In this document: positions 16,973 through 39,630 of the stretch, one piece after another
How the letters are laid out: every line of letters begins with the position of its first letter
Numbering within the stretch: position 1 is the first letter of the stretch
From: Candidatus Eiseniibacteriota bacterium
Lineage (GTDB): Bacteria; Eisenbacteria; RBG-16-71-46; SZUA-252
Length of the DNA: 63,561 nt
Reading direction: 5' to 3'
Assembly (NCBI GenBank): GCA_035494915.1
Contig: DATJGP010000173.1
Coordinates: forward strand, 1-63,561
The notes under the pieces: generated by a model
The model's database searches: none
Seen by the model: only the letters and a program-made list of their open reading frames with translations
Told to the model about the DNA's origin: nothing
Made by a program: the position numbers and the translations under genes

Positions 16973-16974
16973 CC

Positions 16975-17775
16975 GTGCGGGCGTCGACCGAAGCGCACTG
17001 GAGCCGCTTCTGGAAAGAGCGGGCCGAGATCGACGAGGTCTATCCGACCGCCGGCCGCGTCGTGGAACAGATGACCGCCGAGGGCCCCGTGAAGGGGAAG
17101 GTGGTCCTCGAGGTGGGGGCGGGATCGGGACGTGACAGCGTCGGGCTGGCGGAGCAGGGGGCGATCGCGGTGATGCTCGACTACTCGATGGCGTCGCTCC
17201 AGGTGGCGCGCGACGTGGCCGAGCGGTCGGGGGTGACTCCGCTCCTGGTCCGCGCGGATGCGCTCCGGATGCCGTTCCGGGACGGCACCTTCGATGCGGT
17301 CTTCCATCAGGGACTGCTCGAGCACTTCCGCGATCCGATGCCGCTCCTGCGCGAGAACGTGCGCTCGCTCAAGAAGGACGGCATCCTCCTCGTCGACGTG
17401 CCGCAGCGCTGGCATCTCTACACCGTGGTCAAGCACGCGCTCATCGCCGCGGGGCGCTGGTTCGCCGGCTGGGAGACCGAGTTCTCGATCGGTGAATTGA
17501 CCGGACTCATGTCGCGGGCCGGAGTGCGCATCGAGCGCCGCTACGGCGCCTGGATGGTGCCGGGCCTCGCCTACCGGTCGCTTCGACTCGGGCTCTTGAA
17601 GCTGCGGCTCGCGCGCCTGCCGCTCGATCCGCCGTCCGTCCCGCTGATCACGCCCGTCTTCGCGGGGATCCGCGGGCTCGTCGCGCGGACGCCGCTCGCG
17701 TACCACACCTACTTCGTGATCGGCGCGATCGGACGCAAGGAGGCGCCGGAACCTCCGGCTGCCCGAGCCGGTTGA
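16975..17775 (+). CDS. class I SAM-dependent methyltransferase
   Basis: Motif I VLEVGAGSGRD and post-I/II motifs (VMLDYS, FDAVFHQGLLEHF). GTG start 2 nt after the upstream stop. The longer track ORF (16210..) overlaps the phosphoesterase gene in another frame. Confidence 0.8.
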   Translation: MRASTEAHWSRFWKERAEIDEVYPTAGRVVEQMTAEGPVKGKVVLEVGAGSGRDSVGLAEQGAIAVMLDYSMASLQVARDVAERSGVTPLLVRADALRMPFRDGTFDAVFHQGLLEHFRDPMPLLRENVRSLKKDGILLVDVPQRWHLYTVVKHALIAAGRWFAGWETEFSIGELTGLMSRAGVRIERRYGAWMVPGLAYRSLRLGLLKLRLARLPLDPPSVPLITPVFAGIRGLVARTPLAYHTYFVIGAIGRKEAPEPPAARAG

Positions 17776-18893
17776 ACCTCATCGCGTTCAACTGGCGCGA
17801 TCCGCGCCACCCCGAAGCCGGCGGCGCCGAGCTCCACCTCTTCGAAATCCTCCGCCGCGCGGTTCGCGACGGCGACCGGGCGGTCTGGCTGGCGGAGCGC
17901 TATCCTGGTGCGGCAGAGGAAGATCGGATCGAGGGCATCGAGATCCACCGTGCGGGTACGTGGTACAATGCGCACCTTGCCCTCGGGGCTCTCTATCGAC
18001 GTCGGTTCCGGAGGGAACGGTTTGACCTCGTCGTGGAAGATATCAACAAGGTCCCCTTCTTCGCCCCGCTCTACGCGACGGCGCCGGTCCTGGCCGTCGT
18101 GCCTCACCTATTCGGCACCACCGCCTTCGACGAAGCGTCCGCACCGATCGCCGCGCTGGTCTCCGCACACGAGAGCCTGATCCCGATCGTGTACCGGAAG
18201 AGCCGCTTTCTCGCGATCTCGGAGAGCACGCGGGACGACCTCGCGCGCCGCGGCATCGCGCGCGCCCGGATCGACGTCGTGCGCTGCGGCTTGAACCAGG
18301 GGGACTACGCCGTCGACGTTGCCCCGGAGAATCGCGCGGAGCCCGAGATCGTCTTCCTCGGCCGGCTCCGCCGGTACAAGGGGGCGCAGCACGCCATCGC
18401 GGCGCTACCGATCATCGCCGCGTCGGTACCCGGGGCGCGCCTCGCCATCGTCGGCGACGGGCCGTATCGTCCGGAGCTCGAGCGTCTCGCGACGGAGCTC
18501 GGCGTGTCGGACCGCACCCGCTTCCTTGGAGCGGTGTCGCAGGCGGGGAAGGTGTCGGCGCTCAATCGCGCGCAGGTCGCGGTGAATCCCTCGCCGAAGG
18601 AAGGCTGGGGACTCACCGTGATCGAAGCGAACGCGTGCGGCGTGCCCGTGGTCGCGAGCCGGAGCCCGGGCCTGATCGAGTCGGTGCGGGACGGCGAGAC
18701 GGGACTCCTCGTTCCCCACGGCGATCCTCGTGCGCTCGCGGCCGGCGTGGTGAAGCTCCTCACCGATCACGATCTCAGGCTCCGGCAGGCGCGAGCCGCG
18801 ATCGCGTGGGCGCACACCTTCGACTGGGAGACGTGCTACCGCGGGAGCCGCGCGGTCATGGAGCTCGCGGCCCGGGAGGGCGCGCGCCCATGA
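17772..18893 (+). CDS. glycosyltransferase family 4 (GT-B)
   Basis: EGWGLTVIEANACGVPVVASRSPGLIESVRDGETGLLVPHGD signature. The TTG start overlaps the upstream stop. Confidence 0.85.
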   Translation: MNLIAFNWRDPRHPEAGGAELHLFEILRRAVRDGDRAVWLAERYPGAAEEDRIEGIEIHRAGTWYNAHLALGALYRRRFRRERFDLVVEDINKVPFFAPLYATAPVLAVVPHLFGTTAFDEASAPIAALVSAHESLIPIVYRKSRFLAISESTRDDLARRGIARARIDVVRCGLNQGDYAVDVAPENRAEPEIVFLGRLRRYKGAQHAIAALPIIAASVPGARLAIVGDGPYRPELERLATELGVSDRTRFLGAVSQAGKVSALNRAQVAVNPSPKEGWGLTVIEANACGVPVVASRSPGLIESVRDGETGLLVPHGDPRALAAGVVKLLTDHDLRLRQARAAIAWAHTFDWETCYRGSRAVMELAAREGARP

Positions 18894-19945
18894 GCGGCGG
18901 GGGCCTCAAGGGCTTCTACGAGAAGTATCACGTGCCCTTGATCGCGGCGAAGGTGATCCTGAGCCTCGCGCTCTTCGCCTACGTCGTGGCGAAGGTCTCG
19001 CCCGGGGACATCTGGGCCACCATCCGTCCCGCGGACCCCGGCCTTCTCGTGCTCGCCGGCTCACTCCTTTTTTTCTCGAGCCTCGTCGGCGGATGGCTCT
19101 GGGCGCGGCTCCTCCAGGCGCAGGGCGTGAACATCCCGTTCCGCAAGGCGGCGTCGTATTACTTCGTCGGACTCTTCTTCAACAACTTCCTCCCGTCCAA
19201 CATCGGCGGCGACATCGCGCGGATCTCGGACGCGTCGAAGCACGCGGACAACGTGAGCCGCGTGTTCACGGCCACGCTCATGGACCGGCTGATCGGCGTC
19301 CTCGCGATCGCGTTTCTCGCGCTCCTCGCCTCGTTCGCGTCCGTCGACCGGTTCCACCTGTACGCCATCTACGGGATGATCGCGCTCGTGTTCTTCACGA
19401 TGCTCGGCCTCTTCGTCAGCATCTTCCACCGCCGCGTGCTCGAGGCCTTCGAATGGCCGTTCCGGATGATCGGCGCGCGGGGGATCGCGCGCGCGATCTC
19501 GCGCCTCATGGACGATCTTCACGGCTACAAGGGCCAGGGGGGCGCGCTCGTCACCGCCGTCGCGGCGTCGATGCTGGTCCAGGTCGGCCGGATCGTCGCG
19601 CACTACCTCGTGGGGCTCGCCCTCGGCGTGCGCGTGGCGATGGGTTATTACTTCCTCTTCGTGCCCGTGCTCGCGGCGCTCGTGTCGCTCCCGATCTCGT
19701 TGAACGGTCTCGGCGTCCGTGAAGGCGCCGGCGTCGTCCTCTTCCAGATGTCGGGCATGACCAAGGAGCAGGCGTTCACGGTACCGTTTCTCACCTATCT
19801 CCTCTCCGTCCTCATCAGCTTGATCGGAGGGCTCATCTTCGTGACCCGCCCATCGCGCCGCGCCCTACAGGCGATGCTCGAGAAGAAGCGGAGCGTGCGC
19901 GAGGCGGAGACCGGAGACACCCAAAGGAGACGCATCGGCTCATGA
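18890..19945 (+). CDS. MprF-flippase-like integral membrane protein (UPF0104 / LPG_synthase_TM family)
   Basis: Polytopic membrane protein. FFNNFLPSNIGGDIARI and LPISLNGLGVREG motifs are characteristic of this family. ATGA overlap with the upstream gene. Confidence 0.65.
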   Translation: MSGGGLKGFYEKYHVPLIAAKVILSLALFAYVVAKVSPGDIWATIRPADPGLLVLAGSLLFFSSLVGGWLWARLLQAQGVNIPFRKAASYYFVGLFFNNFLPSNIGGDIARISDASKHADNVSRVFTATLMDRLIGVLAIAFLALLASFASVDRFHLYAIYGMIALVFFTMLGLFVSIFHRRVLEAFEWPFRMIGARGIARAISRLMDDLHGYKGQGGALVTAVAASMLVQVGRIVAHYLVGLALGVRVAMGYYFLFVPVLAALVSLPISLNGLGVREGAGVVLFQMSGMTKEQAFTVPFLTYLLSVLISLIGGLIFVTRPSRRALQAMLEKKRSVREAETGDTQRRRIGS

Positions 19946-22533
19946 CCTGGAAGCGCGGCCACGCCCTGTTCGCGGCCCTCTCCTTCTTCGTCCCGCTCTT
20001 GGCCTACATGCGCACCGTCACGCCGACGGTGCCGTTCTGGGACTCCGGGGAGTTCATCGCGACGTCGTACATCCTCGGCCTTCCGCACCCGCCCGGAAAC
20101 CCGGTCTACACCATGCTCGGGCGCATGATGACGTTCCTGCCCTTCGAGACCGTCGCGTGGCGGGTCAACTTCATGAGCTCGCTCGCGTCGGCGATCACCT
20201 GCTTCTTTACCTATCTCTTCACCGCGCGTGCCATTCGCCGCACGTTCGGCATCGGCTCGGCCGCGGAACGGGGCGACGATGCGGCCCCGGCGTCGGATCT
20301 CACGTGGCTTTCGAGCTGCGTGGGCGGCCTGGTCGCCGCCCTCTTCCTCGCCTTCGGCTCGTCCTTCTGGGACAGCGCGATCGAGGCCGAGGTCTACTCG
20401 CTCTCGTCCGCCATCATCGCGTTCGTCGTCTGGCTCGCCTTCGTCTGGTGGGACCGGCAGGGAGAGCCGGGAAACGACAAGCTCCTCATCCTCATCGTGT
20501 ACATCCTGGGCGTGTCGACCGGCGTGCATCTCGGCACGATCCTGATCGCGCCGTCCCTGCTCGTGCTCTTCTGGATGGTGAGACCGGGCACGTTCAATAG
20601 CTCGAAGTTCCTCGTCCCGTTCCTCGCGATCTGCGGCTTCGTCGTGCTCCTGTACCTGAACGGCGCCCTGGACATGGGGCTCTCGGACAAGGTCATCCTG
20701 GGAATCCTCGCGCTGGGGTTCCTCTACGCCCTCGTCCAGAACAAGTTCTTCATCCGGAAGAACCTCGTCGCCTGGTGGGTGCTCGTCGGGATGATCGGGA
20801 TCACGGTGCAGCTCTTCCTCCTCATCCGAAGCCAGCAGATGCCGAACGTGAACGAAGGAGCCCCCACCACGCTCGGAACGTGGCTCGAGTACCTGAGCCG
20901 CAAGCAGTACGGGCCGGCCGATCCCTTCGACCGGCGCGCCGAGCTCTGGTACCAGATCCAGCACATGTACCTGCGCTACGTGGGGCAGCAGTGGCACCTG
21001 ATCGAGCGGCTGGGGAACCTGGACCTGGGGTCCTTCTGGGTCCGGCTCGTCAACGCGGTCCCGTACCTCTTCTTCTTCACGGGCGCGTTCTGGAACTACC
21101 GTCGCGACCGGAAGTCGTTCTGGTTCTTCCTCGCGACGCACATCATCATGGGTCCGGCGCTCATCTTCTATCTCAACTTCACGGACCACGAGGTTCGCGA
21201 GCGCGACTATTTCTTCACGAACTCCTATCACTTCATCGCGGTGTGGATCGGCATGGGGGCGGCCGCGGCGCTCCACGCTCTCGCGGGCGCGCTCGCGCCA
21301 GGGGAGGTGGCCGCACGAGACGACGAGTCGGAGGAGGTTCCCGCGGCGGCTCCGCTTCCATCGGGAAGCTCCAACCGCGCCGTCCTCGGCCTGGGCGCGC
21401 TCACGCTCACCGGCCTGGCGCTCCTGCCCATGCGGACCAACTGGTTCGAGCACGACCGCTCGGGCTTCTACATCGCGCACGATTACGCCTACAACATGCT
21501 CGAGCCGCTCGAACCCAACGCGGTCGTGTTCACGAACGGGGACAACGACACGTTCCCGCTCTGGTACATCCAGGAGGTGGAGAAGGTCCGTAAGGACGTC
21601 CGGGTCGTCAACCTCAGTCTTCTCAATACTCCCTGGTACATCCAGCAGCTTCGGGACCAGGAGCCGAAGGTTCCGATAAGCTTCACGAATGCGCAGCTCG
21701 CCGTGATGGGCCCCTACCAGGATCCCCAGACCGGGCAGATCGTCTGGGTGAAGGACCTCGCGGTGAAGGACATCGTGAAGACGAACCAGTGGAAGAAGCC
21801 GCTCTACCTGGCGGTCACCGTGCCGGACCAGATGGGGATGGAGAAGCAGCTCTCGCTCGAGGGCCTGGTCTTCCGCATCGACCCGAAGGAGACGCAGAGG
21901 TCGGTCGATCTCGACAAGACCATGCACAACCTCTACTCGACCTTCAAATATGGCGGGCTCCTGGACAAGAACCGCGCCTACGATACGACCGTGTACAAGG
22001 ACGAGAACGCCTATCGTCTCGTCCAGAACTACACGGCGGCGCACGTCCAGGCCGCGTATCAGCTCCAGCTGGCCCGGCGGAATCCGGAAGCGGTCAAGGT
22101 GCTGGAGGACGCGGTGAAGATCTCGCCCGACTTCCCGGGCCTGCTCGAGTACCTGGGCAAGCTGTACGAGGACACGGGACGCCCCGACAAGGCGGAGCAG
22201 ATCTACGTGGAGGGTGTGCGCCGCTTCCCGACGCAGCCCGAGTACCACTATCACCTGGGGATCCTCTACTACCAGACCGGCCGGGTGGATCCGGGCATTG
22301 CGGAGCTCAGGCGCGCGGCCGAGCTGAATCAGCAGTACTTCGACTGGTTCAGCGCGCTCTTCACCGCACTCTGGCAGACGGGCCGGCGCGCCGAGGCGGT
22401 CGACGTGCTCCGCACCTGGGCGCGCGCGCATCCCGAGGACGCGCAGGGGGCGGGCTACCTGAAGGTCTACGAGGAATCACTCCGCGTGCTGGGCTCCGGT
22501 CCCCCAGCGCGCGTGACGCCGGGGCGCGGATGA
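19942..22533 (+). CDS. DUF2723 (TMEM260-like) GT-C-fold membrane glycosyltransferase with C-terminal TPR repeats
   Basis: N-terminal PFWDSGEFIATSYILGLPHPPGNPVY motif, more than 10 predicted TM helices, a soluble domain, then TPR repeats (…AVKISPDFPGLLEYLGKLYEDTGRPDKAEQIYVEGVRRFPTQPEYHYHLGILYYQTGR…). Confidence 0.8.
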   Translation: MTWKRGHALFAALSFFVPLLAYMRTVTPTVPFWDSGEFIATSYILGLPHPPGNPVYTMLGRMMTFLPFETVAWRVNFMSSLASAITCFFTYLFTARAIRRTFGIGSAAERGDDAAPASDLTWLSSCVGGLVAALFLAFGSSFWDSAIEAEVYSLSSAIIAFVVWLAFVWWDRQGEPGNDKLLILIVYILGVSTGVHLGTILIAPSLLVLFWMVRPGTFNSSKFLVPFLAICGFVVLLYLNGALDMGLSDKVILGILALGFLYALVQNKFFIRKNLVAWWVLVGMIGITVQLFLLIRSQQMPNVNEGAPTTLGTWLEYLSRKQYGPADPFDRRAELWYQIQHMYLRYVGQQWHLIERLGNLDLGSFWVRLVNAVPYLFFFTGAFWNYRRDRKSFWFFLATHIIMGPALIFYLNFTDHEVRERDYFFTNSYHFIAVWIGMGAAAALHALAGALAPGEVAARDDESEEVPAAAPLPSGSSNRAVLGLGALTLTGLALLPMRTNWFEHDRSGFYIAHDYAYNMLEPLEPNAVVFTNGDNDTFPLWYIQEVEKVRKDVRVVNLSLLNTPWYIQQLRDQEPKVPISFTNAQLAVMGPYQDPQTGQIVWVKDLAVKDIVKTNQWKKPLYLAVTVPDQMGMEKQLSLEGLVFRIDPKETQRSVDLDKTMHNLYSTFKYGGLLDKNRAYDTTVYKDENAYRLVQNYTAAHVQAAYQLQLARRNPEAVKVLEDAVKISPDFPGLLEYLGKLYEDTGRPDKAEQIYVEGVRRFPTQPEYHYHLGILYYQTGRVDPGIAELRRAAELNQQYFDWFSALFTALWQTGRRAEAVDVLRTWARAHPEDAQGAGYLKVYEESLRVLGSGPPARVTPGRG

Positions 22534-23474
22534 CGGGGCCCGTGCTGGTCACCGGGGCCGCCGGCTTCATCGGCTCCACGCTCAGCGAGAGGCTGCTCGC
22601 CTCCGGAGCGGACGTGATCGGCGTCGACTCGTTCACCGACAACTATGCCCCCTCCATCAAGCGGATGAACATCTCGCGCCTCACGGCGAACCCTCGCTTC
22701 CGGCTGGTCGAGACCGATCTCCGGACCGCGGCCATCGACCCGCTCCTCGACGGCGTGGATGGCGTCGTGCACCTTGCGGCGCTTCCGGGCGTCCGAGCGA
22801 GCTGGGGGGAGCCGTTCCGCGCGTACGCCGAGCACAACGTGGTCGCGACGCAGCGCCTCCTCGAAGCGGTCCGCCGCCATCCCGTCCGGCGGCTGGTGGC
22901 GGCGTCGAGCTCGTCCATCTATGGGCTCCCGACGCGATTTCCGACGCCCGAAGACGAGGCGCCCCGGCCGGTCTCGCCGTACGGCGTGACGAAGCTCGCG
23001 GGGGAAGCGCTGTTCCATGCGTACTGGGCCACTTACCGCCTGCCGCTCGTCGGGCTCCGGTACTTCACGGTCTACGGCCCGCGGCAGAGGCCCGACATGG
23101 GCATCCACGCTTTCTTCGAGGCGGCCAAGAGCGGCACGCCCGTGAAGGTCTACGGCACGGGGGACCAGACCCGGGACTTCACATTCGTCGACGACGCCGT
23201 GGCCGCGACGATCTCAGCGCTCACGCAGCCCGCCGTGCCGGGGCTGACGTACAATGTCGGCGGCGGCCATCGCGTGTCGCTCAACGACCTGCTCGCGCGC
23301 ATCGAGCTCGTGACGGGGCGTCCGCTCGAGCGGAGGCTCGTCGCGGCACCGCCGGGCGATCCGCCCGATACGTCGGCCGACTGCTCGCGCGCGCGACGGG
23401 ACCTGGGGTACGAGCCCAAAACCGAGCTGACGGAGGGACTCAGGCGCCAATGGGAGTGGCAGCGGAGGTCGTGA
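22530..23474 (+). CDS. SDR-family NAD-dependent sugar-nucleotide epimerase/dehydratase
   Basis: VTGAAGFIGS Rossmann motif and SPYGVTKLAGE (YxxxK) catalytic motif. ATGA overlap upstream. Confidence 0.85.
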   Translation: MTGPVLVTGAAGFIGSTLSERLLASGADVIGVDSFTDNYAPSIKRMNISRLTANPRFRLVETDLRTAAIDPLLDGVDGVVHLAALPGVRASWGEPFRAYAEHNVVATQRLLEAVRRHPVRRLVAASSSSIYGLPTRFPTPEDEAPRPVSPYGVTKLAGEALFHAYWATYRLPLVGLRYFTVYGPRQRPDMGIHAFFEAAKSGTPVKVYGTGDQTRDFTFVDDAVAATISALTQPAVPGLTYNVGGGHRVSLNDLLARIELVTGRPLERRLVAAPPGDPPDTSADCSRARRDLGYEPKTELTEGLRRQWEWQRRS

Positions 23475-24427: not shown

Positions 24428-24450
24428 CGACGCGTGCGAAGCACGCGTCG
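24428..24450 (+). other. perfect 10-bp GC-rich hairpin in intergenic spacer
   Basis: CGACGCGTGC-GAA-GCACGCGTCG immediately after the TAG stop (24425..24427), with no U-tract. A related GCGTGCGAA copy follows at about 24466. Confidence 0.6.
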
Positions 24451-24493
24451 GAACGCATTCCCCGGCGCGTGCGAACGCCTCGGATCGCATGAG

Positions 24494-27646: not shown

Positions 27647-27720
27647 GGCGGCACGCTACGGGACCGGGCTCGCCCGGGTCAATGCCCCTCCGCCTGGCGC
27701 GGACACGCGCATCCTCCGGC

Positions 27721-27750
27721 TTGACTGGGCCTTGCGCCCGCACGTAGGCT
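27721..27750 (+). promoter_or_regulatory. putative sigma-70-type promoter for the 27.8-39.6 kb glycosylation operon
   Basis: TTGACT (27721..27726), 18-nt spacer, TAGGCT (27745..27750). GGAGG lies 6 nt before the GTG at 27779. Confidence 0.4.
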
Positions 27751-27778
27751 ACTCCGGTGCACAACCACGGAGGCTCAC

Positions 27779-32090: not shown

Positions 32091-32101
32091 CGGGAGGGGT
32101 C

Positions 32102-34045
32102 CTGGGCCTCTCGCTCGTCGTCGTCCACTACAACACCCGCGAGCACCTGGAGCGCCTCTTTCAGTCCCTGCGGGAGGCACGTCCCGCACCGCTGCGGGAG
32201 ATCGTGGTCGTGAACAATTCCGGGGAGCCGCTCGACGATCTCGCGCGCGCGTCCGGGTATCCGACCCGGGTCCTCACGCCGGGCTCCAATCTCGGGTATG
32301 CGCGCGGCGTGAACGAGGGGATCCGGGCCGCGTCCGAGGAGAACGTGCTGCTCCTCAATCCGGACGTCCGCGTGCTGCCGGGCTCGGTGGAGGCGCTCGA
32401 GCGCGCGGCGGCGGAGCATCCCCGCGCGGGGATCCTGGCGCCCAAGCTCCTCGAGTCGGACGGATCGCTCCAGCTCTCGGCGCGGCGGTTCTACACGTGG
32501 CGGACGCTCCTCTACCGCCGCATGCCGCTCCCCGGCGTCGCCGCGCGGAGCCGCGAGGTGCGGGAGCACATGATGGAGGACTGGGACCACTTGGACACCC
32601 GCGCGGTCGACTGGGTGCTGGGGGCCGCGATGTACGTGAGGCGGAGCGCCATGCGCGACGTGGGCCTCATGGACGAGCGGTACTTCCTCTATTTCGAGGA
32701 CGTCGACTGGTGCCAGCGGATGTGGCGCCACGGTTACGAAGTGGTCTACTGTGCGGATGCGCGGATGGTGCACGAGTACGAGCGCGCGAGCGCCCAGATG
32801 CGACCGCGCTCGGTCCGGGCCCACGCGGCCGGACTCCTTCGATTCACGGAAAAGTGGAGCGCGATTCTCTACGCCATGAGCCAGCATCGACGCCGGACGA
32901 TCCAGGTGGTGACGCTCGCGATGGACGCCCTCGCGGCCGTGGTCGCGTGCGCCGCCGCGTACGCGATCCGCAGCGCGCTCGATCCCTGGTTCGACCGCCC
33001 GGTGTTCCCGGCGGAGAGCTACGCGGGACTCCTCTACTTCACGGTGGGCGTCACGATCGCCGCGCTCGCGATGAACGGCCTCTACCGGCGGACCGATTTC
33101 ACGGACCGCATCGAGCGCGCGTTCCTGGTGGGGAAGTCGGTGGTCCAGGCGGTGCTCCTCCTCATGGCCGCGACCTTCCTCTTCCAGATGCCGCGCTACT
33201 CCCGCTTCCTCGTGCTGCTCGTCGGGCCCCTCCTCTTCCTCTTCCTCTACGTCGCGCGCGGAGCGCTCGCGAGCGTGGCGGCCGGCGCGCGGAAGCAAGG
33301 GTTCGCGTTTCGCCGCGTGCTCCTCCTCGGCTCGGGCGCCGAGGCGGAGCAGGCGCGCGCCGCGCTCGAGGGCTCCCGCCGCGAAGGATTCGAGCCGCTC
33401 CACGCGCGCGCCTCGTCGAGCCCGGACGAGCCGCCCGAGGCCGCGGCCGCGCGGATCCGCTCGCTGGTCGAAGGGGAGCGCGTGCAGATCGTCTGCCTCG
33501 TCCCGGAGCCGGACGAGGTGCCGTACCTCCTCGCGATGGGGTCCGCGCTCCGCGACTCGGGCGCCGCGCTCTGGTGGGCCGGCTCCGTCGCGCATCTCGC
33601 GGCCGCGGCGGGGGAGTCGCGCCGTCTCGGGCCGCTCGACGCGGTTCTGCTCCACGCCCCGAGCCGCGGGCTCTCGCTCCGCGCAAGGAAGCGCGCGAGC
33701 GATCTCTTGCTCTCGTTTCTCATCGCCCCCTGGCGCTGGGGCCGCATCCGCTCCTATCTCGCGGAGCGCGGGGACGGCCTCGCTGCGGGCGAGGCATGGC
33801 GCCAGGTGGTGACCGGCGCCCGGAGCTGGGTGGGACGGAGCCCGTACGAAGCGGATCGCTGGACCGGTGTGCCGCCCTGGGCGCGGCTCGCGCTCGAATC
33901 GCTCCGCCCCGGGGTGGTGTCGCCCGCCAACGGCGCGGGCTCGGACCGGCGCGCGCGTCTCGAGTCGGAGCTCGCCTACCTCACGCGCTTCTCGATCGCG
34001 GAAGATTTGCGCGTGTTCCTCCGCGCCACGGAGCGAAAGCGGTGA
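32102..34045 (+). CDS. fusion protein: N-terminal GT2 domain + WbaP-like TM/Rossmann module with degenerate phosphoglycosyltransferase C-terminus
   Basis: GT2 motifs (LSLVVVHYN, VVNNSGE, YFEDVDWCQRMWRHGY). From about 32876 there are four TM helices plus a Rossmann-like linker. The C-terminus (KRASDLLLSFLIAP…ARSWVGRSP…AYLTRFSIAEDLRVFLRT) resembles a bacterial sugar transferase but lacks the central catalytic block. No ATG/GTG/TTG lies near the domain start; a CTG at 32102 has GGGAGGGG just upstream. The only in-frame ATG (31943) would overlap the previous gene by 148 nt. Confidence 0.65.
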   Translation: MGLSLVVVHYNTREHLERLFQSLREARPAPLREIVVVNNSGEPLDDLARASGYPTRVLTPGSNLGYARGVNEGIRAASEENVLLLNPDVRVLPGSVEALERAAAEHPRAGILAPKLLESDGSLQLSARRFYTWRTLLYRRMPLPGVAARSREVREHMMEDWDHLDTRAVDWVLGAAMYVRRSAMRDVGLMDERYFLYFEDVDWCQRMWRHGYEVVYCADARMVHEYERASAQMRPRSVRAHAAGLLRFTEKWSAILYAMSQHRRRTIQVVTLAMDALAAVVACAAAYAIRSALDPWFDRPVFPAESYAGLLYFTVGVTIAALAMNGLYRRTDFTDRIERAFLVGKSVVQAVLLLMAATFLFQMPRYSRFLVLLVGPLLFLFLYVARGALASVAAGARKQGFAFRRVLLLGSGAEAEQARAALEGSRREGFEPLHARASSSPDEPPEAAAARIRSLVEGERVQIVCLVPEPDEVPYLLAMGSALRDSGAALWWAGSVAHLAAAAGESRRLGPLDAVLLHAPSRGLSLRARKRASDLLLSFLIAPWRWGRIRSYLAERGDGLAAGEAWRQVVTGARSWVGRSPYEADRWTGVPPWARLALESLRPGVVSPANGAGSDRRARLESELAYLTRFSIAEDLRVFLRATERKR

Positions 34046-36243
34046 TCTCGTCCGCGCGCCGAGCATCGGTGCTCCTCGTTGGATGGCTTCTCGCCTCCCC
34101 CGCCGTCGGGCGTGCCGCGACGAGCGTGTTCATCACCAACCACATCCACTCCGACCAGGTCAGCGCGCTGACCGTGTGGCAGGGAAAGGTGGTGGCGGCG
34201 ACGCTCGGAGGGCTCGTCATGGTGGACCCCGCGACGCGCGAGCGCACGAAGCTCCTCGCGTCGCCCGGAGGATTGCCGTCGAACAGCGTGCTCGCCGTCG
34301 CGGTCGGGCCGAGCGGGATCCTCTGGGCGGGAACGGCCGACAAGGGTCTGGCACGGCTCGTCCCGGGCGGAGGATTCAAGCGCACCCTGACCAGCTTCGA
34401 CGGGCTTCCCAGCGATCGCGTGCAGTCGCTCTACGTGCACGGCGACAGCATCTGGGTGGGGACGAGCGGGGGCGTGGCGCTCTTCACCGAGAGCGCGTCG
34501 GGCCAGACGACGCTCCGGCGGAGCGACTCGCAGGCGAGCACCGGGGGCGGCCTCGTGTCGGACGACATCCTCGCCTTTCAGCAGGTGGCGGACACGCTCT
34601 GGGTGGGGACGTCCGGGGGACTCTCGACGTTCACGAGCGGTGTGTGGCAGAACCGCGCGTCGACGCTCGCGGTTGCGGTGCGCAGCCTCGCGCTATTCGC
34701 CGATACCCTTTGGGCTGCAACACCGTCCGGGCCGAGACGCTATGCAGGGGGAACCTTTACGCTCGTAGGTGCGGGACACCCAGGATCCAGCTTCGCGCTC
34801 TTCTCCGATGGGACGAGATTGATCTCGGGTACCGCGTCGGGTGCATTCGTGTACACAGGTCTTGATTGGACTCTCTTCCGTCCGGGCCCGTCGGGTTTCC
34901 GGCCGACGTCGTTCGTGACCGCACCGGACGGGAGCCTCTGGGCTGGTACCGACCGTGGTGTTGCACGCTTGGACGCTGCATGGATCATCTATCCGACTGA
35001 CGGCCCCGCGGTGAACGGCGTGGAGCGCGCGCTCGTGGACTCGCGCGGCGCTTGGTTCGCGACCGGCAACAACGTGCCCCCCGGCGGCAGTCTCGGAAAC
35101 GTTCTCCATTACGACGGCACGAGCTGGTCGCTTCTCGCCCCGTCGACCACGGGCAACGCGCTCCAGTCCACGAGCGTGTTCGGACTCGCGGAAGACCCAG
35201 AGGGGGCGATCTGGATGGGGCACTGCTGCAGCGCCTCCGACCCGCTGCCGCGGACGGACCGCTATCAGCCCGACACCGACGCATGGACCGCGCTCGGCAC
35301 GACCAACATCTTCGTCCTCACGCGCGGCCCGGATGGGCTCATGTACGCGGGGAGCGCGGAGCTGGCGAACGGCATCTACGTCTACGATCCCACCGTGCCC
35401 GCGGTCGTCGACTCGCTGACCCCGCTCAACACTCAAGGCTCGGCCGTCGGAGCCGGGCTCGCGAGCAACAATCTGCGCGGGATCTCGTTCGACACGTCGG
35501 GGCGCGGGTGGATCGCGCACGCGGCGGCCGGCCTCGACATCTGGGACGGGCGCGGCACGCTCACGGATCATTCGGACGATGTCTGGAAGCATCTCGCCAC
35601 GGGATTTCCCTCCCTGCAGACGACCGCGGTCGAGACCGACGGCGCGTCCTCCGGCTGGGTGGGAACCGTGGCTGGGGTGGTCCGGATCGTGAACGACGTC
35701 ATCGTTCCGGGGACAACCGTGGCCATCAACGCTGCGCTTCCGTCTCCGGCGGTTCACGATCTCGAGCTCGACTCCGAGGGAAATCTCTGGGTTGCGACGA
35801 CGGCGGGGCTCGCCCGCGTGGCCGAGGGCTCGACCTTCGTGGAGCACTGGGGAACCGCGGAAGGGCTCGCTGGAGACGACGTGCGGGCGCTCGCGTGGGA
35901 CGCGGCCCACCGCACGCTCTGGGTGGGCACGACGTCCGGCATCTCGGAGGTGGTGGTGCCCCAGGCGGGCGCGACGACGTTCACGTCGAAGAGCTACGTC
36001 TATCCCAGCCCCATCGGCCCGCAAACCACGGCGCTCCGGATCGGCGGGATCACGGGGGAAGTGACGGGGGAGATACGGGACGTGACCGGGGCCATCATCC
36101 AGCGGTTCCGCTGCGATCCCGCGCACGACGTGGTCTGGAATCTCCTCCTCGCCGACGGCGCGCGAGCCCGGTCGGGCGTCTTCGTGGTGGTGCTTCGAGA
36201 TCGCGACGAGCATCGGATGCTGCGCGTGGCGGTGGTGCGATGA
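34042..36243 (+). CDS. secreted beta-propeller protein (two-component-regulator-propeller type repeats) with divergent FlgD-Ig/T9SS-like C-terminal domain
   Basis: Signal peptide (ASVLLVGWLLASPAVGRAAT). Repeated LW(V/A)GT..G(L/V) blades (ILWAGTADKGLARL, IWVGTSGGVALF, LWVGTSGGLSTF, LWAGTDRGVARL, LWVATTAGLARV, LWVGTTSGISEV). C-terminus YVYPSP…SGVFVVVL…VAVVR. GTGA overlap upstream. Confidence 0.75.
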   Translation: MISSARRASVLLVGWLLASPAVGRAATSVFITNHIHSDQVSALTVWQGKVVAATLGGLVMVDPATRERTKLLASPGGLPSNSVLAVAVGPSGILWAGTADKGLARLVPGGGFKRTLTSFDGLPSDRVQSLYVHGDSIWVGTSGGVALFTESASGQTTLRRSDSQASTGGGLVSDDILAFQQVADTLWVGTSGGLSTFTSGVWQNRASTLAVAVRSLALFADTLWAATPSGPRRYAGGTFTLVGAGHPGSSFALFSDGTRLISGTASGAFVYTGLDWTLFRPGPSGFRPTSFVTAPDGSLWAGTDRGVARLDAAWIIYPTDGPAVNGVERALVDSRGAWFATGNNVPPGGSLGNVLHYDGTSWSLLAPSTTGNALQSTSVFGLAEDPEGAIWMGHCCSASDPLPRTDRYQPDTDAWTALGTTNIFVLTRGPDGLMYAGSAELANGIYVYDPTVPAVVDSLTPLNTQGSAVGAGLASNNLRGISFDTSGRGWIAHAAAGLDIWDGRGTLTDHSDDVWKHLATGFPSLQTTAVETDGASSGWVGTVAGVVRIVNDVIVPGTTVAINAALPSPAVHDLELDSEGNLWVATTAGLARVAEGSTFVEHWGTAEGLAGDDVRALAWDAAHRTLWVGTTSGISEVVVPQAGATTFTSKSYVYPSPIGPQTTALRIGGITGEVTGEIRDVTGAIIQRFRCDPAHDVVWNLLLADGARARSGVFVVVLRDRDEHRMLRVAVVR

Positions 36244-37214
36244 AGGCGGACGCGCTTCCGGCGGAGATCATGACGCCCGATCCCGCGGCCTGGGACGATC
36301 TCGTTCTCGCGTCGTCGGGCGGCAGTGTGTTCCACACCGCGGCGTGGGCTCGGCTCTGGACCGGCCTCGCGTCCTCGACGAGGTGGGAGGCGGCAGTCCT
36401 CGAGGAGGGAGGCCGGTACGTGGCCGCGCTCGGCTGGATCGTCCGCCGCCACGGGTGGTTCGAATCGCTCGACGCGATGCCGTACGCCACGTACGGGGGT
36501 CCGATCGTGCGCGAAGGGCACCCGGATCCCGGCCAGGCACGCCACGCGCTCCTCGAGACCTTCCTCGCGCGCGCGTCGCGCCGGCGCGTGCTGCGCGCGC
36601 AGCTCACGTGGTACGGCGGCCGGCCCGAGGATTTCCCCGACGGCTCGTCCCCCGAGGAAGCGAGCACGCACGTGCTCGGGCTGGAGAGCGATTACGAGCG
36701 GGTCGCCGATCGCTTCTCTCCGTCCACGCGGAGGCTCGTGCGCCAGTCCGACGAGAGCGGCCTCTCGATCCGAGCGGCCGAGTCCGCGGAGGACGTCGCG
36801 ACATTCATCGCGATCGCCGAGGAGACGGTGGTCCGGCGCGGTGGAAAACCGAAGCCGCGAGCCCTCTACGAGCGGATCCAGGGCGACCTGGTTCCGGCCG
36901 GCCTCGCGCGCTACCACCTGGTCGAGCACGAGGGCAAGGCGGTCGCGGGGAGCCTCCATCTGTTCCACCAAGGCGTGGCGACGAGCTGGCTCCCGGTGTC
37001 GCTGGAGTCGTCGTGGCCGCTGCGGCCGAACAACTTTCTCGTGGCGAGTCTCCTCGAGACGCTCTGCCAGGCGGGATACGCGGAGTACAACTTCGGCGCT
37101 TCGCCGTCCGACGCGGCGGGCCTGATCCGCTTCAAGGAGGGATGGGGCGCGCGGCCGCGTCCCGTCTGGACGTTGACGCGGCGGAGCGCCCTCCACCGCC
37201 GGCTCCGTCCGTAG
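36240..37214 (+). CDS. FemAB-like / GNAT-fold acyl(aminoacyl)transferase
   Basis: LHLFHQGVATSWLPVS and YNFGASP…GLIRFKEGWGARP motifs typical of the FemAB-like acetyltransferase family. ATGA overlap upstream. Confidence 0.6.
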   Translation: MKADALPAEIMTPDPAAWDDLVLASSGGSVFHTAAWARLWTGLASSTRWEAAVLEEGGRYVAALGWIVRRHGWFESLDAMPYATYGGPIVREGHPDPGQARHALLETFLARASRRRVLRAQLTWYGGRPEDFPDGSSPEEASTHVLGLESDYERVADRFSPSTRRLVRQSDESGLSIRAAESAEDVATFIAIAEETVVRRGGKPKPRALYERIQGDLVPAGLARYHLVEHEGKAVAGSLHLFHQGVATSWLPVSLESSWPLRPNNFLVASLLETLCQAGYAEYNFGASPSDAAGLIRFKEGWGARPRPVWTLTRRSALHRRLRP

Positions 37215-38308
37215 TGCGCATTCTCCTCCTCGCGCACGCCCCGTCCACCCACACCGCCCTCTGGGCTCGCGCGCTCGCGGCCCGTGGACACGCGATCCGT
37301 CTCTTGTCGGCGGAGCCGGGCGCGCCTGGTCCGGTGTCCACGCGCGTGGTGGGAACGAGCGTGCCGCTTCAGGCGCTTCGCTACGCGAGCGCGCGCGGAG
37401 CGGTGCGCGAGGAGATCCAGCGCTTCAAGCCCGACGTCACCGTGGCTCACTTCCTTCCCAACTACGGCTTCCTCGCCGCCCTCGCGGGCGCGCGCCCCTG
37501 GATGCTCGTCTGCTGGGGGTCCGACCTCCTCGTGAACGCCTGGAAGACGCCGCTCCATCGCGCGCGAGCGCGATGGACGCTCCGGAAGGCGGATCGAATC
37601 CACGTGGACGCGGCCAACCTGGCGCGCGCGGCGGAGGAGCTGGGCGCGCCGCGCGATCGAATCTGGACCCGCGCGTGGGGCGTCGACGTTCCGTCGCTCG
37701 CTCCGTCCGAGACGTGGAGCGCGCGGCGCGAGCGGAGCCCCGCGCTCCGGATCCTCTGGACGCGGCAGCTCGAGGATCTCTACGACCCCGAGACGTTCAT
37801 CCGCGCGCTCGGCGCGCTCGGACGGCGCGGCGTGCCGTTCGAGGCGACCATCGCGGGATCGGGGCCGCTTCGCATGGGGCTCGAGCGGCTGGCCAAGCGG
37901 GAGAAGGTCGCCGACCGCATCGCCTGGACCGGCTGGGTCGACCGTCCCCGGATCACCGCGCTCTATCGAAGCCATCATGCGTACGTGTCGCTCTCGCGCT
38001 CCGATTCCACGTCGCAGTCGCTCCTCGAGGCGATGGCGGCGGGGCTCGTGCCGGTCGTCACCGACATCGATGGGAATCTCGAGTGGGTGCGCCACCGGCG
38101 CGAGGGGCTGCTCGTTCCCACAGGCGATGAAGAAGCGGTCGCCGCGGCGCTGGCCGAGGTGGCGAAGGACGCCGCGTCCGCGGAGGCGATGTCGGAGCGC
38201 TCGGCCACGGTCGCGCGCGAGCGGGGGAATCTCGCCGACACGGTGGACCTGATCGAGCGGCAGCTCAGCGAGCTGGCCGGCGCTCCGGCCGCTCGGGCGG
38301 TCTCGTGA
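37214..38308 (+). CDS. glycosyltransferase family 4 (GT-B)
   Basis: N-terminus VRILLLAHAPSTHT. C-terminal SRSDSTSQSLLEAMAAGLVPVVTDIDGNLEWVRHRREGLLVP signature. Confidence 0.8.
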   Translation: MRILLLAHAPSTHTALWARALAARGHAIRLLSAEPGAPGPVSTRVVGTSVPLQALRYASARGAVREEIQRFKPDVTVAHFLPNYGFLAALAGARPWMLVCWGSDLLVNAWKTPLHRARARWTLRKADRIHVDAANLARAAEELGAPRDRIWTRAWGVDVPSLAPSETWSARRERSPALRILWTRQLEDLYDPETFIRALGALGRRGVPFEATIAGSGPLRMGLERLAKREKVADRIAWTGWVDRPRITALYRSHHAYVSLSRSDSTSQSLLEAMAAGLVPVVTDIDGNLEWVRHRREGLLVPTGDEEAVAAALAEVAKDAASAEAMSERSATVARERGNLADTVDLIERQLSELAGAPAARAVS

Positions 38309-39630
38309 AACGGCTCCTCGCGATCGCCTACTTTTTCCCACCACTCGGCGGCGGAGGCTGTCAGCGGACGCTCAAGCTCGTGCGCTACCTCGAGCCCGAG
38401 GGGTGGGCGTCGACCGTGGTGACCACGCGGGACGCCGACTACTGGATCCTCGATCCGTCCCTCGAAGCCGAGATCCCGAGAACGGCGGAGGTGATCCGCG
38501 TGGGCGGGATCACCTCCCTCCGGCTCGTGCGTCTCCTCGCGGAGGCCGGCGGCATCGAGCGGCGGCAAGGCGCGCGCGACGCGCGCGCGTTCCAAAGGCT
38601 GAGGCGCGCGCAGTCGTGGCTGCTCCTGCCCGATGGGTACCGCGCCTGGGCGCGCGAAGCGCAGCGCGCGGCGGCGCGCCGGATCGCGGCGGGCGGGATC
38701 GACGCGCTCTGGACGACCTCGTCGCCGGAGAGCGCCCATCTCGCCGGGCTGGCCCTGAAGCGTCGCTTCGGGATCCCCTGGGTCGCCGACTTTCGCGATC
38801 CCTGGGTGGGGCGCGTCACGTACGCGCCTCCGACGTCGTGGCACGACGCGCGCCACAGGGAGCTCGAGCGCTCGGTCGTGACGGCGGCCGATCGCGTGAC
38901 CCTGGTGAGCGAGCCGATGACCGCTCTTTACCGGGAGCGCTATCCCGATCTCCCGGGTGAGACATTCGTGACCCTCCCGAATGGCGTCGACTCGGACGAC
39001 TGGCGCCGCGTGGCCGAGCTTCCGGCATCGCCCGACTCGCGCGACGAAGGGCGCTGCGTGCTCCTTCACGCGGGGCAGCTCGCGCACCGCCCCACGGTGC
39101 GCACGCTCCTCGACGCGGTCGAGCGCGTGATCTCGGCCGATCCGAGCGCGCGGGATCAGCTCCGGCTCCGGTTCCTGGGCGGAAACGAGGAGCTGAGGCC
39201 GGGGGAGTGGTCCGAGCGCGGCCTCGACGGGATCGTGCAGGCGGAGCCGTCGCGGCCGCATCTCGAGGCGCTCCAGGCCATGCGCCGTGCCTACGCCCTC
39301 GTCCTCCTGGGGCACGGCGGCGACGCCGACTCGCTCCTCTACACGGGAAAGATCTACGAGTACCTGACGAGCGGCCGCCCCATCCTCGGGGTCCTGGACC
39401 CCGGCCCGGCCGCGGACCTGATCCTCGAGGCCGGGGCCGGGACGGTTTCCCGGCCTGGCGACGAGGCCTCGACCGCCCGAGCCATCGAGAATCTCCTCCG
39501 GTCCTTCCGAGAGGGCCAGGACTCGGCGGTCCGGCCCCCGGCCGCCCTGGCCGGAGGCTGGGAGCGGAAGGCCATGGCCGGCCGGGCCGCGGCCCTCCTC
39601 GGACGCCTCGTTTCGCCCGTCGCGGGCTAG
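38305..39630 (+). CDS. GT-B glycosyltransferase (GT4-like)
   Basis: AYFFPPLGGGGCQRTLKLVRYL N-terminus and YTGKIYEYLTSGRPILG C-terminal motif. GTGA overlap upstream. Confidence 0.7.
   Translation: MKRLLAIAYFFPPLGGGGCQRTLKLVRYLEPEGWASTVVTTRDADYWILDPSLEAEIPRTAEVIRVGGITSLRLVRLLAEAGGIERRQGARDARAFQRLRRAQSWLLLPDGYRAWAREAQRAAARRIAAGGIDALWTTSSPESAHLAGLALKRRFGIPWVADFRDPWVGRVTYAPPTSWHDARHRELERSVVTAADRVTLVSEPMTALYRERYPDLPGETFVTLPNGVDSDDWRRVAELPASPDSRDEGRCVLLHAGQLAHRPTVRTLLDAVERVISADPSARDQLRLRFLGGNEELRPGEWSERGLDGIVQAEPSRPHLEALQAMRRAYALVLLGHGGDADSLLYTGKIYEYLTSGRPILGVLDPGPAADLILEAGAGTVSRPGDEASTARAIENLLRSFREGQDSAVRPPAALAGGWERKAMAGRAAALLGRLVSPVAG

Follow-up and report, generated by a model that had tools for sequence, protein, structure and literature searches.

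The stretch of DNA analyzed here (the window) comprises positions 1–63,561 of contig DATJGP010000173.1 of a Candidatus Eiseniibacteriota bacterium. Its positions 17772–39630 are a 16-gene operon (G1 to G16) encoding soluble glycosyltransferases, two large membrane-bound glycosyltransferases of the GT-C type and a secreted PorZ-like protein. Because the window has a GC content of about 70%, the genes were called from the GC frames of the third codon positions and then scanned against Pfam and NCBIfam. Fifteen of the genes lie on the plus strand and G8 alone on the minus strand, and 4-base overlaps of start and stop codons join G1-G2-G3-G4, G9-G10-G11, G12-G13-G14, and G15-G16. An initial annotation made from the sequence had counted 17 consecutive genes, including about eight cytoplasmic enzymes of glycosyltransferase families GT4 and GT2. 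Gene calling reduced these numbers to 16 and to seven free-standing soluble enzymes (G1, G6, G7, G8, G9, G15, G16), while each gene type listed there was recovered at its coordinates.

G3 (19942–22533) belongs to the TMEM260/DUF2723 family of GT-C enzymes (CAZy GT117) and carries a C-terminal TPR domain, as initially annotated. Its N-terminal GT-C module matches PF11028 with 167.7 bits at a cut-off of 24.2 (3e-49). PF28495 (TMEM260_2) is a precomputed match, so both TMEM260 models of Pfam are found in G3, and TPR models match residues 700–834. The protein aligns to human TMEM260 (PDB 9rql) with an E-value of 6e-16, residues 488–577 of G3 corresponding to residues 395–484 of TMEM260. D34, located inside a 'PxVPxxDSGE' stretch, aligns with the catalytic D52 of the human enzyme, whose D52A mutant is inactive (PMC10214176). 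Among 113 relatives, the motif W33-D34-S35-G36-E37 shows a conservation of at least 97%. The only characterized member of the TMEM260 family is a protein O-mannosyltransferase which acts on Ig-like IPT domains (PMC10214176), and no paper characterizing a bacterial TMEM260/DUF2723 member was found in full-text literature searches.

Downstream of G3, a GalE-like NAD-dependent sugar-nucleotide 4-epimerase/dehydratase of the SDR type is encoded by G4 (22530–23474; PF01370, 5.1e-58). In NCBIfam it comes closest to GalE (4e-49, below the cut-off), and it probably supplies the donor for G5. G5 (23450–24427) is a membrane-anchored polyprenyl-phosphate GT2 enzyme with C-terminal transmembrane helices, which fits its earlier description as GtrB/CsbB-like. 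It matches ArnC in the PDB over its full length (1.8e-45), GtrB (5ekp) with 5.6e-31, and the NCBIfam families ArnC (4e-49) and PgfS (1.4e-40). Upstream of G3, G2 (18890–19945) encodes an MprF-type flippase-like membrane protein (UPF0104/LPG_synthase_TM) with about eight transmembrane segments. It covers the full model of PF03706 (2.6e-39) and matches the flippase-like domain TIGR00374 above its cut-off (7.7e-19), which makes it a candidate flippase for lipid-linked sugars. A small flippase of the GtrA/GtcA type (PF04138) was not matched by any gene in the window; the LPG_synthase_TM protein G2 is present instead.

A second pair of this kind is formed by G10 and G11. G10 (28921–31380) is a YfhO-like GT-C protein with a periplasmic beta-sandwich and a final transmembrane helix. 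It matches PF09586 with 39.6 bits (cut-off 28.5; 2.9e-10), but at model positions 779–835 of 835 only, i.e., with its last 58 residues, and the NCBIfam models PgfM1/M2 also match at the C-terminus only. Since a sequence search against the PDB gave no match, the fold of G10 was examined by predicted structure. An AlphaFold model built from 48 homologues (pLDDT 85, pTM 0.85) was compared using Foldseek, and ranks 1–22 are all GT-C enzymes, with AftD at the top and STT3, ArnT, PglB, Emb, and Pmt4 among the others. In the first outer loop, P63-D64 is invariant in the 48 sequences. The conserved acidic residues of G3 and G10 both sit in the first extracytoplasmic loop. G11 (31377–32090) encodes a soluble polyprenyl-phosphate glycosyltransferase related to Dpm1, with the dolichol-phosphate-mannose synthase (DPMS) of Pyrococcus furiosus as best PDB match over the catalytic domain (5mlz, 3.3e-34), in line with its first description as Dpm1-like.

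The alignment of G3 to TMEM260 and the Foldseek result for G10 thus keep both proteins among the glycosyltransferases, and the proposal of two modules, each consisting of a polyprenol-phosphate-sugar synthase and a GT-C enzyme, stood up to the analysis, the adjacency within each module being conserved. As the paired modules are conserved and the GT-C assignments hold, extracytoplasmic glycosyl transfer by this locus is very likely. The model initially drawn from such modules was a dedicated system for extracytoplasmic protein O-glycosylation, in which lipid-phosphate sugars are transferred to serine or threonine of secreted or membrane proteins, G13 included. Here G5 (with G4) and G11 would make the donors, G3 and/or G10 would transfer them, and the soluble glycosyltransferases would act on a different product or lengthen the glycan linked to the protein. 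Several observations speak for it, namely the TMEM260 precedent together with the retained catalytic aspartate and C-terminal TPR domain of G3, the match of G5 to PgfS (1.4e-40) and that of the G10 C-terminus to PgfM1/M2. In streptococci, PgfM1 and PgtC2 of the YfhO family O-glycosylate proteins together with partners of the GtrB/PgfS type, and the pgf cluster of Streptococcus mutans encodes its own substrate adhesins (bioRxiv 10.1101/2024.05.05.592596).

For the analysis of conservation, an alignment of G10 was searched against one genome per GTDB species, which yielded at least 584 relatives. The best 80 loci (numbered with the prefix L) were compared with all proteins of the window, and about 22 kb around each cluster were read. 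G3, G10, and G13 have more than 100 orthologues each, mostly labelled Candidatus Eisenbacteria. Contigs with G10 orthologues show the entire order from G1 to G16, including G8 on the minus strand, and the cluster always ends in mraZ-STAS-rsmH. In the near clade, where G10 is at least 58% identical, about 25 loci have the complete order from G1 to G16 and mraZ. Across Candidatus Eisenbacteria the gene order is kept at 57–85% identity, always between the rib-nusB genes and the division and cell wall (dcw) cluster starting with mraZ. Deeply branching Eisenbacteria, in which G10 is 37–41% identical, retain the core G6-G7-G9-G10-G11-G13-G15-G16-mraZ at 24–69% identity.

The neighbourhood comparison showed that both pairs of synthase and GT-C enzyme are kept. 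G5 follows G3 within 1.6 kb in 25 of 26 loci, in 22 of which G4 lies between them, and G11 is located directly 3′ of G10 in 55 of the 61 loci with enough flank. G13 is found at most 6 kb after G10 in 54 of these 55, with one more detected by a hidden Markov model (HMM) of the C-terminal domain, so that linkage of G10, G11, and G13 holds for every one of the 55 Eisenbacteria-type loci that have sufficient flank. G9 directly precedes G10 in 55 of 67 loci. With 62–85% identity across loci, G11 is the best conserved gene of the cluster. In one metagenome-assembled genome (MAG; contig_43542, loci L004 and L032, 12424–13148), the G11 slot holds a 73-residue open reading frame, either a real loss or a frameshift error of the long-read assembly.

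The remaining six of the 61 loci belong to KSB1, Latescibacterota, Marinimicrobia or unlabelled contigs. In at least three of them (L043, L048, and L055; KSB1 and Latescibacterota) the YfhO-like gene has a G5-like synthase of the GtrB/ArnC type nearby and is not followed by a PorZ-like gene, and the unit G10-G11-G13 therefore appears to be specific for Eisenbacteria, which share a root with Latescibacterota (PMC11323493). Clusters of the same type, with a G10 34–65% identical, were also found in L013, L018, L020, L029, L035, L065, and L086, which are labelled Binatia, Dormiibacterota, Limnocylindrales, Hyphomicrobiales, Bacteroidota, Saccharimonadaceae, and 'archaeon'. Wrong binning or labelling of MAG contigs is the probable reason.

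On the left side, G1 always comes before the G3 module and lies upstream of G3 in L006, L007, L010, L085, and L087, and the gene preceding G1 encodes a SAM-dependent methyltransferase (16975–17775, plus strand; Methyltransf_11, 6.7e-20), an adjacency found again in L007, L085, and L087. This methyltransferase is possibly a sugar methylase. It is preceded by a YfcE-like metallophosphoesterase (16247–16972, plus strand; Metallophos_2, 9.5e-19), a conserved left-hand neighbour; L001, L006, and L007 keep the order nusB, metallophosphoesterase, (methyltransferase), G1. The loci of distant G3 relatives (42–43% identical) show nusB, metallophosphoesterase, (methyltransferase), G1, G3, G4, and G5 in the same order, and for this reason the left border of the functional unit probably takes in 16247–17775. 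G2 is absent from L006 and L007. The DUF2723-TPR gene is tandemly duplicated in some deep lineages (L006, 10001–15060; L071, 630–5806), which hints at a diversified acceptor specificity.

A horizontally acquired island was considered and rejected, as the GC content across the locus (0.65–0.73) equals that of the flanks and both order and position are conserved throughout the phylum. The term 'island' used in the initial annotation thus gives way to a fixed core locus of the phylum. Between mraZ and rsmH lies a gene for a STAS-domain protein (40271–40702, plus strand), which is unusual for a dcw cluster and is conserved in L003–L005 and many other loci.

Of the soluble glycosyltransferases, G1 (17772–18893; Glycos_transf_1, 3.9e-40) and G6 (24434–25627, with a possible start at ATG 24494; Glyco_trans_1_4, 4e-23) are cytoplasmic GT4 enzymes, and G6 is kept in nearly all loci, KSB1 and Latescibacterota included. 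G7 (25618–26568) is a rhamnosyltransferase-like cytoplasmic GT2 enzyme (PF00535, 4e-17; TIGR01556, 4.5e-19) conserved across loci. The GT4 gene G8 (26492–27646, minus strand; Glycos_transf_1, 2.2e-26) is restricted to the near clade, in whose loci its minus-strand orientation is kept. G7 and G8 converge with a 3′ overlap of 77 bases (26492–26568), and this arrangement is found in all near-clade loci. G9 (27779–28924) is a GT4-like protein resembling TuaH (3.1e-23; Glyco_trans_1_4, 3.9e-9). G15 (37214–38308; Glycos_transf_1, 3.1e-24) is a cytoplasmic GT4 enzyme kept in the near and deep clades, and the GT4-like G16 (38305–39630; Glyco_transf_4, 4.7e-13) is the conserved last gene before mraZ. 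Specific functions were not obtained from NCBIfam for any of these GT4 and GT2 enzymes, whose matches there are generic and below the cut-offs, so that neither a sugar nor a linkage can be assigned. Among these matches is a weak one of G6 to a GlcNAc-phosphatidylglycerol synthase (8e-17, below the cut-off).

A different type of GT2 protein is encoded by G12 (32102–34045), which comprises a GT2 domain, four transmembrane helices and a CoA_binding_3 domain, the latter two arranged as in WbaP. The model TIGR03025 (EPS_sugtrans) covers it at model positions 3–270 of 445, with 72 bits against a cut-off of 296. Neither the whole protein nor its C-terminal 141 residues match Bac_transf of Pfam, which bears out the initial description of a GT2-WbaP-like fusion without its catalytic block, and the C-terminal fragment has no significant phosphoglycosyltransferase match in the PDB. 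The L085 orthologue, which is less reduced, aligns to WbaP marginally (E = 0.011), and this only in the vicinity of 'MSLVGP' and 'KPGITG'. On visual inspection, residues other than those of the Asp-Glu dyad stand at its positions in all four lineages considered. An intact initiating transferase hidden in G12 was therefore rejected, with no match in Pfam, a partial one in NCBIfam, and negative or marginal results against the PDB. The degenerate tail is well conserved among the orthologues. It is read as a retained module and not as a decaying pseudogene, and it may serve as a membrane or lipid-carrier-binding module. The orthologues have 647–648 residues and start three residues before 'SL(V/I)VVHY'. 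Where they begin, no ATG, GTG or TTG is present in the window; the corresponding codon is CTG 32102, which lies 12 bases past the stop codon of G11 and a few bases past a ribosome-binding site, GGGAGG. Most likely, G12 uses this non-canonical CTG start.

Profile scans of all genes of the 63.5-kb window revealed no Wzx, Wzy, Wza/Wzc, ABC exporter, O-antigen ligase or intact phosphoglycosyltransferase, which agrees with the absences noticed at first, and MraY of the adjacent dcw cluster is the only polyprenyl-phosphate sugar-phosphate transferase encoded there. Wzx was not found in the near-clade loci inspected either. The clusters of deep lineages, however, carry MOP/Wzx flippases matching Polysacc_synt or Polysacc_synt_3 (L040, 5290–6786; L085, 19996–21546; L036, 18340–19671), so the absence of Wzx is a feature of the clade of the window and not of the system. 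These sister clusters further encode an asparagine-synthase-type amidotransferase (eps_aminotran_1/WbpS-like, 2.7e-112), a WbpB-type oxidoreductase resembling UDP-GlcNAc 3-dehydrogenase (2e-61), a PseB/PglF-like dehydratase, heptose-activation enzymes and extra putative GT-C-like membrane proteins. The WbpS-like and UDP-GlcNAc 3-dehydrogenase types belong to the Wbp/Vim pathway of the linking sugar (PMC7468200, PMC13086638). Wzy, WaaL, Wzz, and Wza were found neither in the window nor among the annotated genes of L003–L007 nor among the extra genes scanned in L036, L040, and L085.

The MOP/Wzx flippases of the sister clusters indicate a stage with a lipid-linked oligosaccharide, and the WbaP-derived membrane module kept by G12 supports a polyprenyl-linked stage as well. 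It is most likely a polyprenyl-linked oligosaccharide on which the soluble glycosyltransferases act. Of the extracytoplasmic pathway proposed initially in place of a classical exopolysaccharide or O-antigen pathway, the GT-C modules are supported, to which a probable stage with a lipid-linked oligosaccharide is added. Export genes co-conserved with the cluster, which would have spoken against that proposal, exist as far as Wzx in L040, L085, and L036 is concerned, but not as Wzy, WaaL, Wzz or Wza in the versions inspected.

These flippases embedded in homologous clusters also suit an ordinary Wzx/Wzy-type cluster for O-antigen or exopolysaccharide, with the genes for initiation, flipping, polymerization, and ligation or export located elsewhere in the genome. 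The GT-C modules would then add side-branch sugars, and modules of GtrB and a GT-C enzyme classically decorate O-antigen. A lipid A gene is indeed present in the organism: at the end of the window, an LpxL-like lipid A acyltransferase gene adjoining a GT4 gene was identified (61875–63561, minus strand), which implies an outer membrane with lipid A. O-antigen and exopolysaccharide loci, however, are among the most variable in bacterial genomes, unlike the locus described here with its order, its 57–85% identity and its fixed site next to the dcw cluster across the phylum, and no version inspected has Wzy, WaaL, Wzz or Wza. Under this explanation G13 would be a glycan-binding or sensing accessory without an anchoring role. 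Its resemblance to glycan-sensing propellers of Bacteroides hybrid two-component sensors would fit, but the protein has a PorZ architecture with a type-IX-style tail, and a gene of the VimA family travels along. We regard such a cluster as unlikely.

The missing initiating phosphoglycosyltransferase can also be explained by a lipoglycan pathway, comparable to that of mycobacterial phosphatidylinositol mannosides, lipomannan and lipoarabinomannan (PIM/LM/LAM) or to glycosylated lipoteichoic acid, in which an undecaprenyl-diphosphate intermediate is not needed. Soluble GT4 enzymes would glycosylate a glycerolipid directly on the cytoplasmic side, G2 would flip it, and the GT-C enzymes would extend it outside from the donors of G5 and G11. 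LM/LAM assembly follows this logic, with GT4 enzymes, a DPMS-like synthase and GT-C enzymes acting together. Furthermore, Foldseek places the mycobacterial arabinofuranosyltransferase AftD first among the matches of G10, the domain with which MprF flips phospholipids is a homologue of G2, and G6 shows the weak resemblance to a GlcNAc-phosphatidylglycerol synthase (8e-17). On the other hand, the WbaP-derived module of G12 and the Wzx of the sister clusters point to polyprenyl-diphosphate intermediates, G2 is missing from several cluster versions, and the GT4 matches are generic, all of them below the cut-offs. A lipoglycan as the product is very improbable.

G13 (34042–36243), first described as a secreted propeller protein with an Ig-like tail, encodes a secreted double propeller. 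Its predicted structure (AlphaFold, pLDDT 90.7) shows a signal peptide, two beta-propellers and a C-terminal beta-sandwich, without any membrane or kinase part. In Foldseek, PorZ (5m11) ranks first (E = 2.4e-27, TM-scores of 0.65/0.63) at a sequence identity of 18%; the propellers of Bacteroides hybrid sensors reach similar E-values, but TM-scores of about 0.34. G13 was also tried as a hybrid two-component sensor on account of its sequence match to such proteins. This was rejected, since there is no membrane or kinase part and the whole chain superposes better on PorZ. The sole NCBIfam match of G13 is T9SS_PorZ (NF052228, 1.5e-16), standing for the attachment-complex component PorZ of type IX secretion systems (T9SS), and all 47 G13 orthologues match this model, which is the one family they share consistently, at values down to 7.8e-27. 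Of the 47 orthologues, 18 reach 1e-3 or better with TIGR04183, the type A sorting domain of T9SS proteins, 1e-5 being the best value.

The following gene, G14 (36240–37214), encodes a VimA-like acyl- or aminoacyltransferase of the FemAB family, for which the FemAB-like assignment was confirmed by PF13480 (Acetyltransf_6, 70.6 bits, cut-off 22; 2e-19). It also matches TIGR03019 (pepcterm_femAB, 7e-15) at model positions 1–281 of 330. VimA of Porphyromonas gingivalis matches the same model and adds serine or glycine to the linking sugar (Veith et al.; PMC7468200). In that organism, WbaP, GtfC, GtfF, and VimF put the linker together on undecaprenyl diphosphate (PMC13086638), and PorZ binds anionic lipopolysaccharide (A-LPS) and presents it to the sortase PorU, which anchors the cargo (PMC8545088). 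T9SS have been reported or proposed for several phyla of the Fibrobacterota-Chlorobiota-Bacteroidota (FCB) group (PMC11285876); a literature search found no paper linking Eisenbacteria to T9SS.

Outside the cluster, a secreted protein of 937 residues, U7 (9185–11998, plus strand), ends in a FlgD_ig domain (1.8e-8, residues 862–924). The domain made up by these last 80 or so residues is of the FlgD_ig/T9SS-like kind and has a relative in the G13 tail (BLASTP, 2e-5; found by the HMM of the G13 tail at 9.6e-5), and weak matches of U7 to C-terminal regions of T9SS proteins were obtained with NCBIfam. The tail HMM also matches the C-terminus of a 6338-residue Big_3_3 protein in L007 (2–475), so that two large secreted proteins unrelated to each other end in this domain. 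This suggests that the G13-type tail is a sorting signal shared in this bacterial group, with U7 as a candidate cargo of an anchoring system.

In the initial annotation, the propeller protein had been regarded as an obvious candidate acceptor of glycosylation. It is better read as a PorZ-type glycan-binding component in an attachment system of type-IX-like character, considering its compact fold, PorZ as top match and the VimA-family gene next to it. The acceptor idea stays alive as an alternative because the YfhO-type enzymes of S. mutans adjoin their substrate genes, and G13 always lies near G10 and G11. PgfM1 and PgtC2, however, target disordered regions rich in serine and threonine (bioRxiv 10.1101/2024.05.05.592596), and the predicted structure of G13 is compact, confidently folded and fully structured, without a region of this kind. 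Moreover, G3 and G13 are located at opposite ends of the cluster, and the modification of proteins with a single sugar would require neither seven soluble glycosyltransferases nor a WbaP-derived module nor the Wzx of sister clusters. A dedicated protein O-glycosylation system is the foremost alternative and is considered somewhat unlikely.

Instead, the locus is interpreted as a core envelope-glycoconjugate operon of Candidatus Eisenbacteria, for which a pathway of five steps can be drawn. First, an oligosaccharide would be assembled on a polyprenyl carrier by the soluble glycosyltransferases and G12, after initiation by an enzyme encoded elsewhere. Second, the intermediate would be flipped, in sister lineages by Wzx and here by G2 or a flippase encoded elsewhere. 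Third, G3 and G10 would add sugars in the periplasm, for which G5 and G11 would provide the lipid-phosphate donors. Fourth, G14 would install an amino-acid or acyl group on a sugar. Fifth and least secure, G13 would bind the glycan and present it to a sortase-type enzyme that anchors proteins with the C-terminal domain, such as U7. By analogy to Porphyromonas, the product may thus serve as an anchor glycan for type-IX-style secreted proteins. The first three steps together, a mixed cytoplasmic and periplasmic envelope-glycan pathway, are held with good confidence; the full chain including the anchoring role is proposed tentatively, with confidence slightly below even.

Several points weigh against the full chain. 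The cluster of this clade lacks Wzx, Wzy, WaaL, and a functional initiating transferase, and it also lacks the enzymes making the amino sugar that G14 would modify. G12 and G14 were not detected in many deep-clade loci, with L040 keeping a diverged G14. The scores of the two surface-related genes are far from their family cut-offs (G13, 60 bits against the equivalog cut-off of 260 of T9SS_PorZ; G14, 54.9 bits against 260 of TIGR03019), and G13 of the window itself has no TIGR04183 match at 1e-3. The TPR domain of G3 and the only characterized member of its family would point to proteins and not glycans as acceptors, and it is an assumption that G3 and G10 share one product with the soluble glycosyltransferases. 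The chain further presupposes a T9SS core (PorK/L/M/N, Sov, PorU, PorV, PorQ), which is hypothetical for the phylum, as about 22 kb were read per cluster. The models are compatible in part, as G3 could glycosylate proteins while G10 and G11 act on the glycan.

The most far-reaching version would be a self-contained, operon-encoded pathway of type-IX cargo anchoring with periplasmic GT-C enzymes. In it, G3 would use its TPR domain to O-glycosylate Ig-like beta-sandwich domains of the proteins with the C-terminal domain, which would make it the prokaryotic equivalent of, and possibly the ancestral form behind, the O-mannosylation of IPT domains in animals. G10 and G11 would complete the glycolipid that the PorZ-like G13 passes to the sortase, and the catalytically dead WbaP domain would be a lipid-carrier-binding scaffold. 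Taken jointly, these assumptions are quite improbable.

In the window, no sign of a defence system, a phage or an RNA element was noticed, and no search aimed at these was made. Upstream of the operon, the window encodes a lipoyl synthase, MgtE, a sigma-54 activator, a SurA-like protein, RadC, a TPR protein, U7, the riboflavin operon and nusB. The SurA-like protein (4438–7428, plus strand), located upstream of RadC and the TPR protein, is unusually long with 996 residues and has an N-terminal SurA domain as well as parvulin-type peptidyl-prolyl isomerase domains. Downstream, the complete dcw cluster from mraZ to ftsZ is followed by recG, an MFS transporter, the GT4 gene and the LpxL-like acyltransferase gene. 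The FtsI-type transpeptidase of this region (42045–44228, plus strand) has a C-terminus with two PASTA domains, as is typical of Gram-positive bacteria, although the LpxL-like gene at the end of the window implies an outer membrane.

The fixed site by the division and cell wall cluster suggests a housekeeping component of the envelope in a phylum that is uncultured and found in soil. Human TMEM260 causes a congenital glycosylation disorder, and for the bacterial family a conserved partner set is now available that could be reconstituted in a heterologous host. The occurrence of PorZ-like and VimA-like genes in a glycan operon is independent genomic support for PorZ-type proteins working on surface glycans. 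It suggests that the glycan anchoring of secreted proteins is older and wider in FCB-related phyla than the Porphyromonas model shows. The fusion of a GT2 enzyme to a degenerate phosphoglycosyltransferase may exemplify the reuse of an enzyme domain as a membrane or lipid-carrier anchor.

Among known systems, the closest is the A-LPS/type IX pathway of P. gingivalis (PorZ, VimA, VimE, VimF, WbaP, GtfC/F, Wbp, WbpS, PorU). Shared with it are a secreted double propeller with a putative C-terminal sorting domain that is structurally nearest to PorZ (G13), a VimA-like gene followed by GT4 enzymes (G14 onwards), the WbaP-type membrane module of G12, the lipid A acyltransferase gene, and, in sister clusters, the WbpS-like and WbpB-type enzymes and Wzx. 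Unlike in Porphyromonas, the WbaP-like domain of G12 no longer matches phosphoglycosyltransferase models, and the cluster of this clade is devoid of the VimE deacetylase, the amino-sugar enzymes of the Wbp type, Wzy, and WaaL. Two GT-C modules are present here and none among the A-LPS-specific genes listed for Porphyromonas (PMC13086638), and a T9SS in Eisenbacteria is hypothetical. The gene arrangement differs as well. The A-LPS and attachment genes of Porphyromonas are scattered, and porZ is not known to lie inside a glycan cluster, while in Eisenbacteria one conserved operon is found.

The three-component systems, i.e., GtrA/GtrB/GtrC for O-antigen, CsbB/GtcA/YfhO for teichoic acids, and PgfS/PgfE/PgfM1/PgfM2 with GtrB/PgtC2 for streptococcal protein O-glycosylation, also pair a GT2 enzyme making polyprenyl-phosphate monosaccharide with a GT-C enzyme, and G10 has the C-terminal signature of YfhO. 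As in the Pgf system, an epimerase adjoins the synthase (PgfE) and the gene of a secreted protein lies by that of a GT-C enzyme (cnm in the pgf cluster). In contrast to these systems, the small flippase GtrA/GtcA is replaced by the MprF-type flippase-like G2, and the YfhO-like enzyme of Eisenbacteria is paired with a soluble DPMS-like synthase, whereas KSB1 and Latescibacterota keep the GtrB-like pairing. The host also encodes lipid A and is presumably Gram-negative, and the modules are embedded among many soluble glycosyltransferases.

With TMEM260 (GT117) and the logic of Dpm1 and PMT/TMTC, the locus has in common an N-terminal GT-C module, a C-terminal TPR domain, the conserved aspartate and a lipid-phosphate-sugar synthase nearby, but G3 is bacterial and the nearest synthase is ArnC/GtrB-like rather than Dpm1-like. 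The lipid A modification by ArnC/ArnT likewise comprises the synthesis of a lipid-phosphate sugar inside and its transfer outside; ArnC is the closest solved relative of G5, and ArnT is among the structural matches of G10. It differs by ArnA/B/D/E/F, which are absent here, by the simple epimerase as neighbour and by GT-C partners from other families. The mycobacterial PIM/LM/LAM pathway (PimA/B, Ppm1, GT-C) likewise combines GT4 enzymes, a DPMS-like synthase and GT-C enzymes without Wzy or an ABC exporter, and its AftD is the top fold match of G10. Here, however, phosphatidylinositol-related genes are missing, a WbaP-derived module and the Wzx of sister clusters are present, and the phylum is unrelated.

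All parts thus belong to known families and the logic of lipid-phosphate sugar and GT-C enzyme is established, so that the locus represents a new combination of known parts and not a new machine. New are this combination and its strict conservation next to the dcw cluster in an uncultured phylum, the bacterial TMEM260 homologue whose partners are defined (a GT4 enzyme, a flippase-like protein, an epimerase and an ArnC-like synthase), the conserved fusion of GT2 to a degenerate phosphoglycosyltransferase module, and the pair of PorZ-like and VimA-like genes within a glycan operon outside Bacteroidota.

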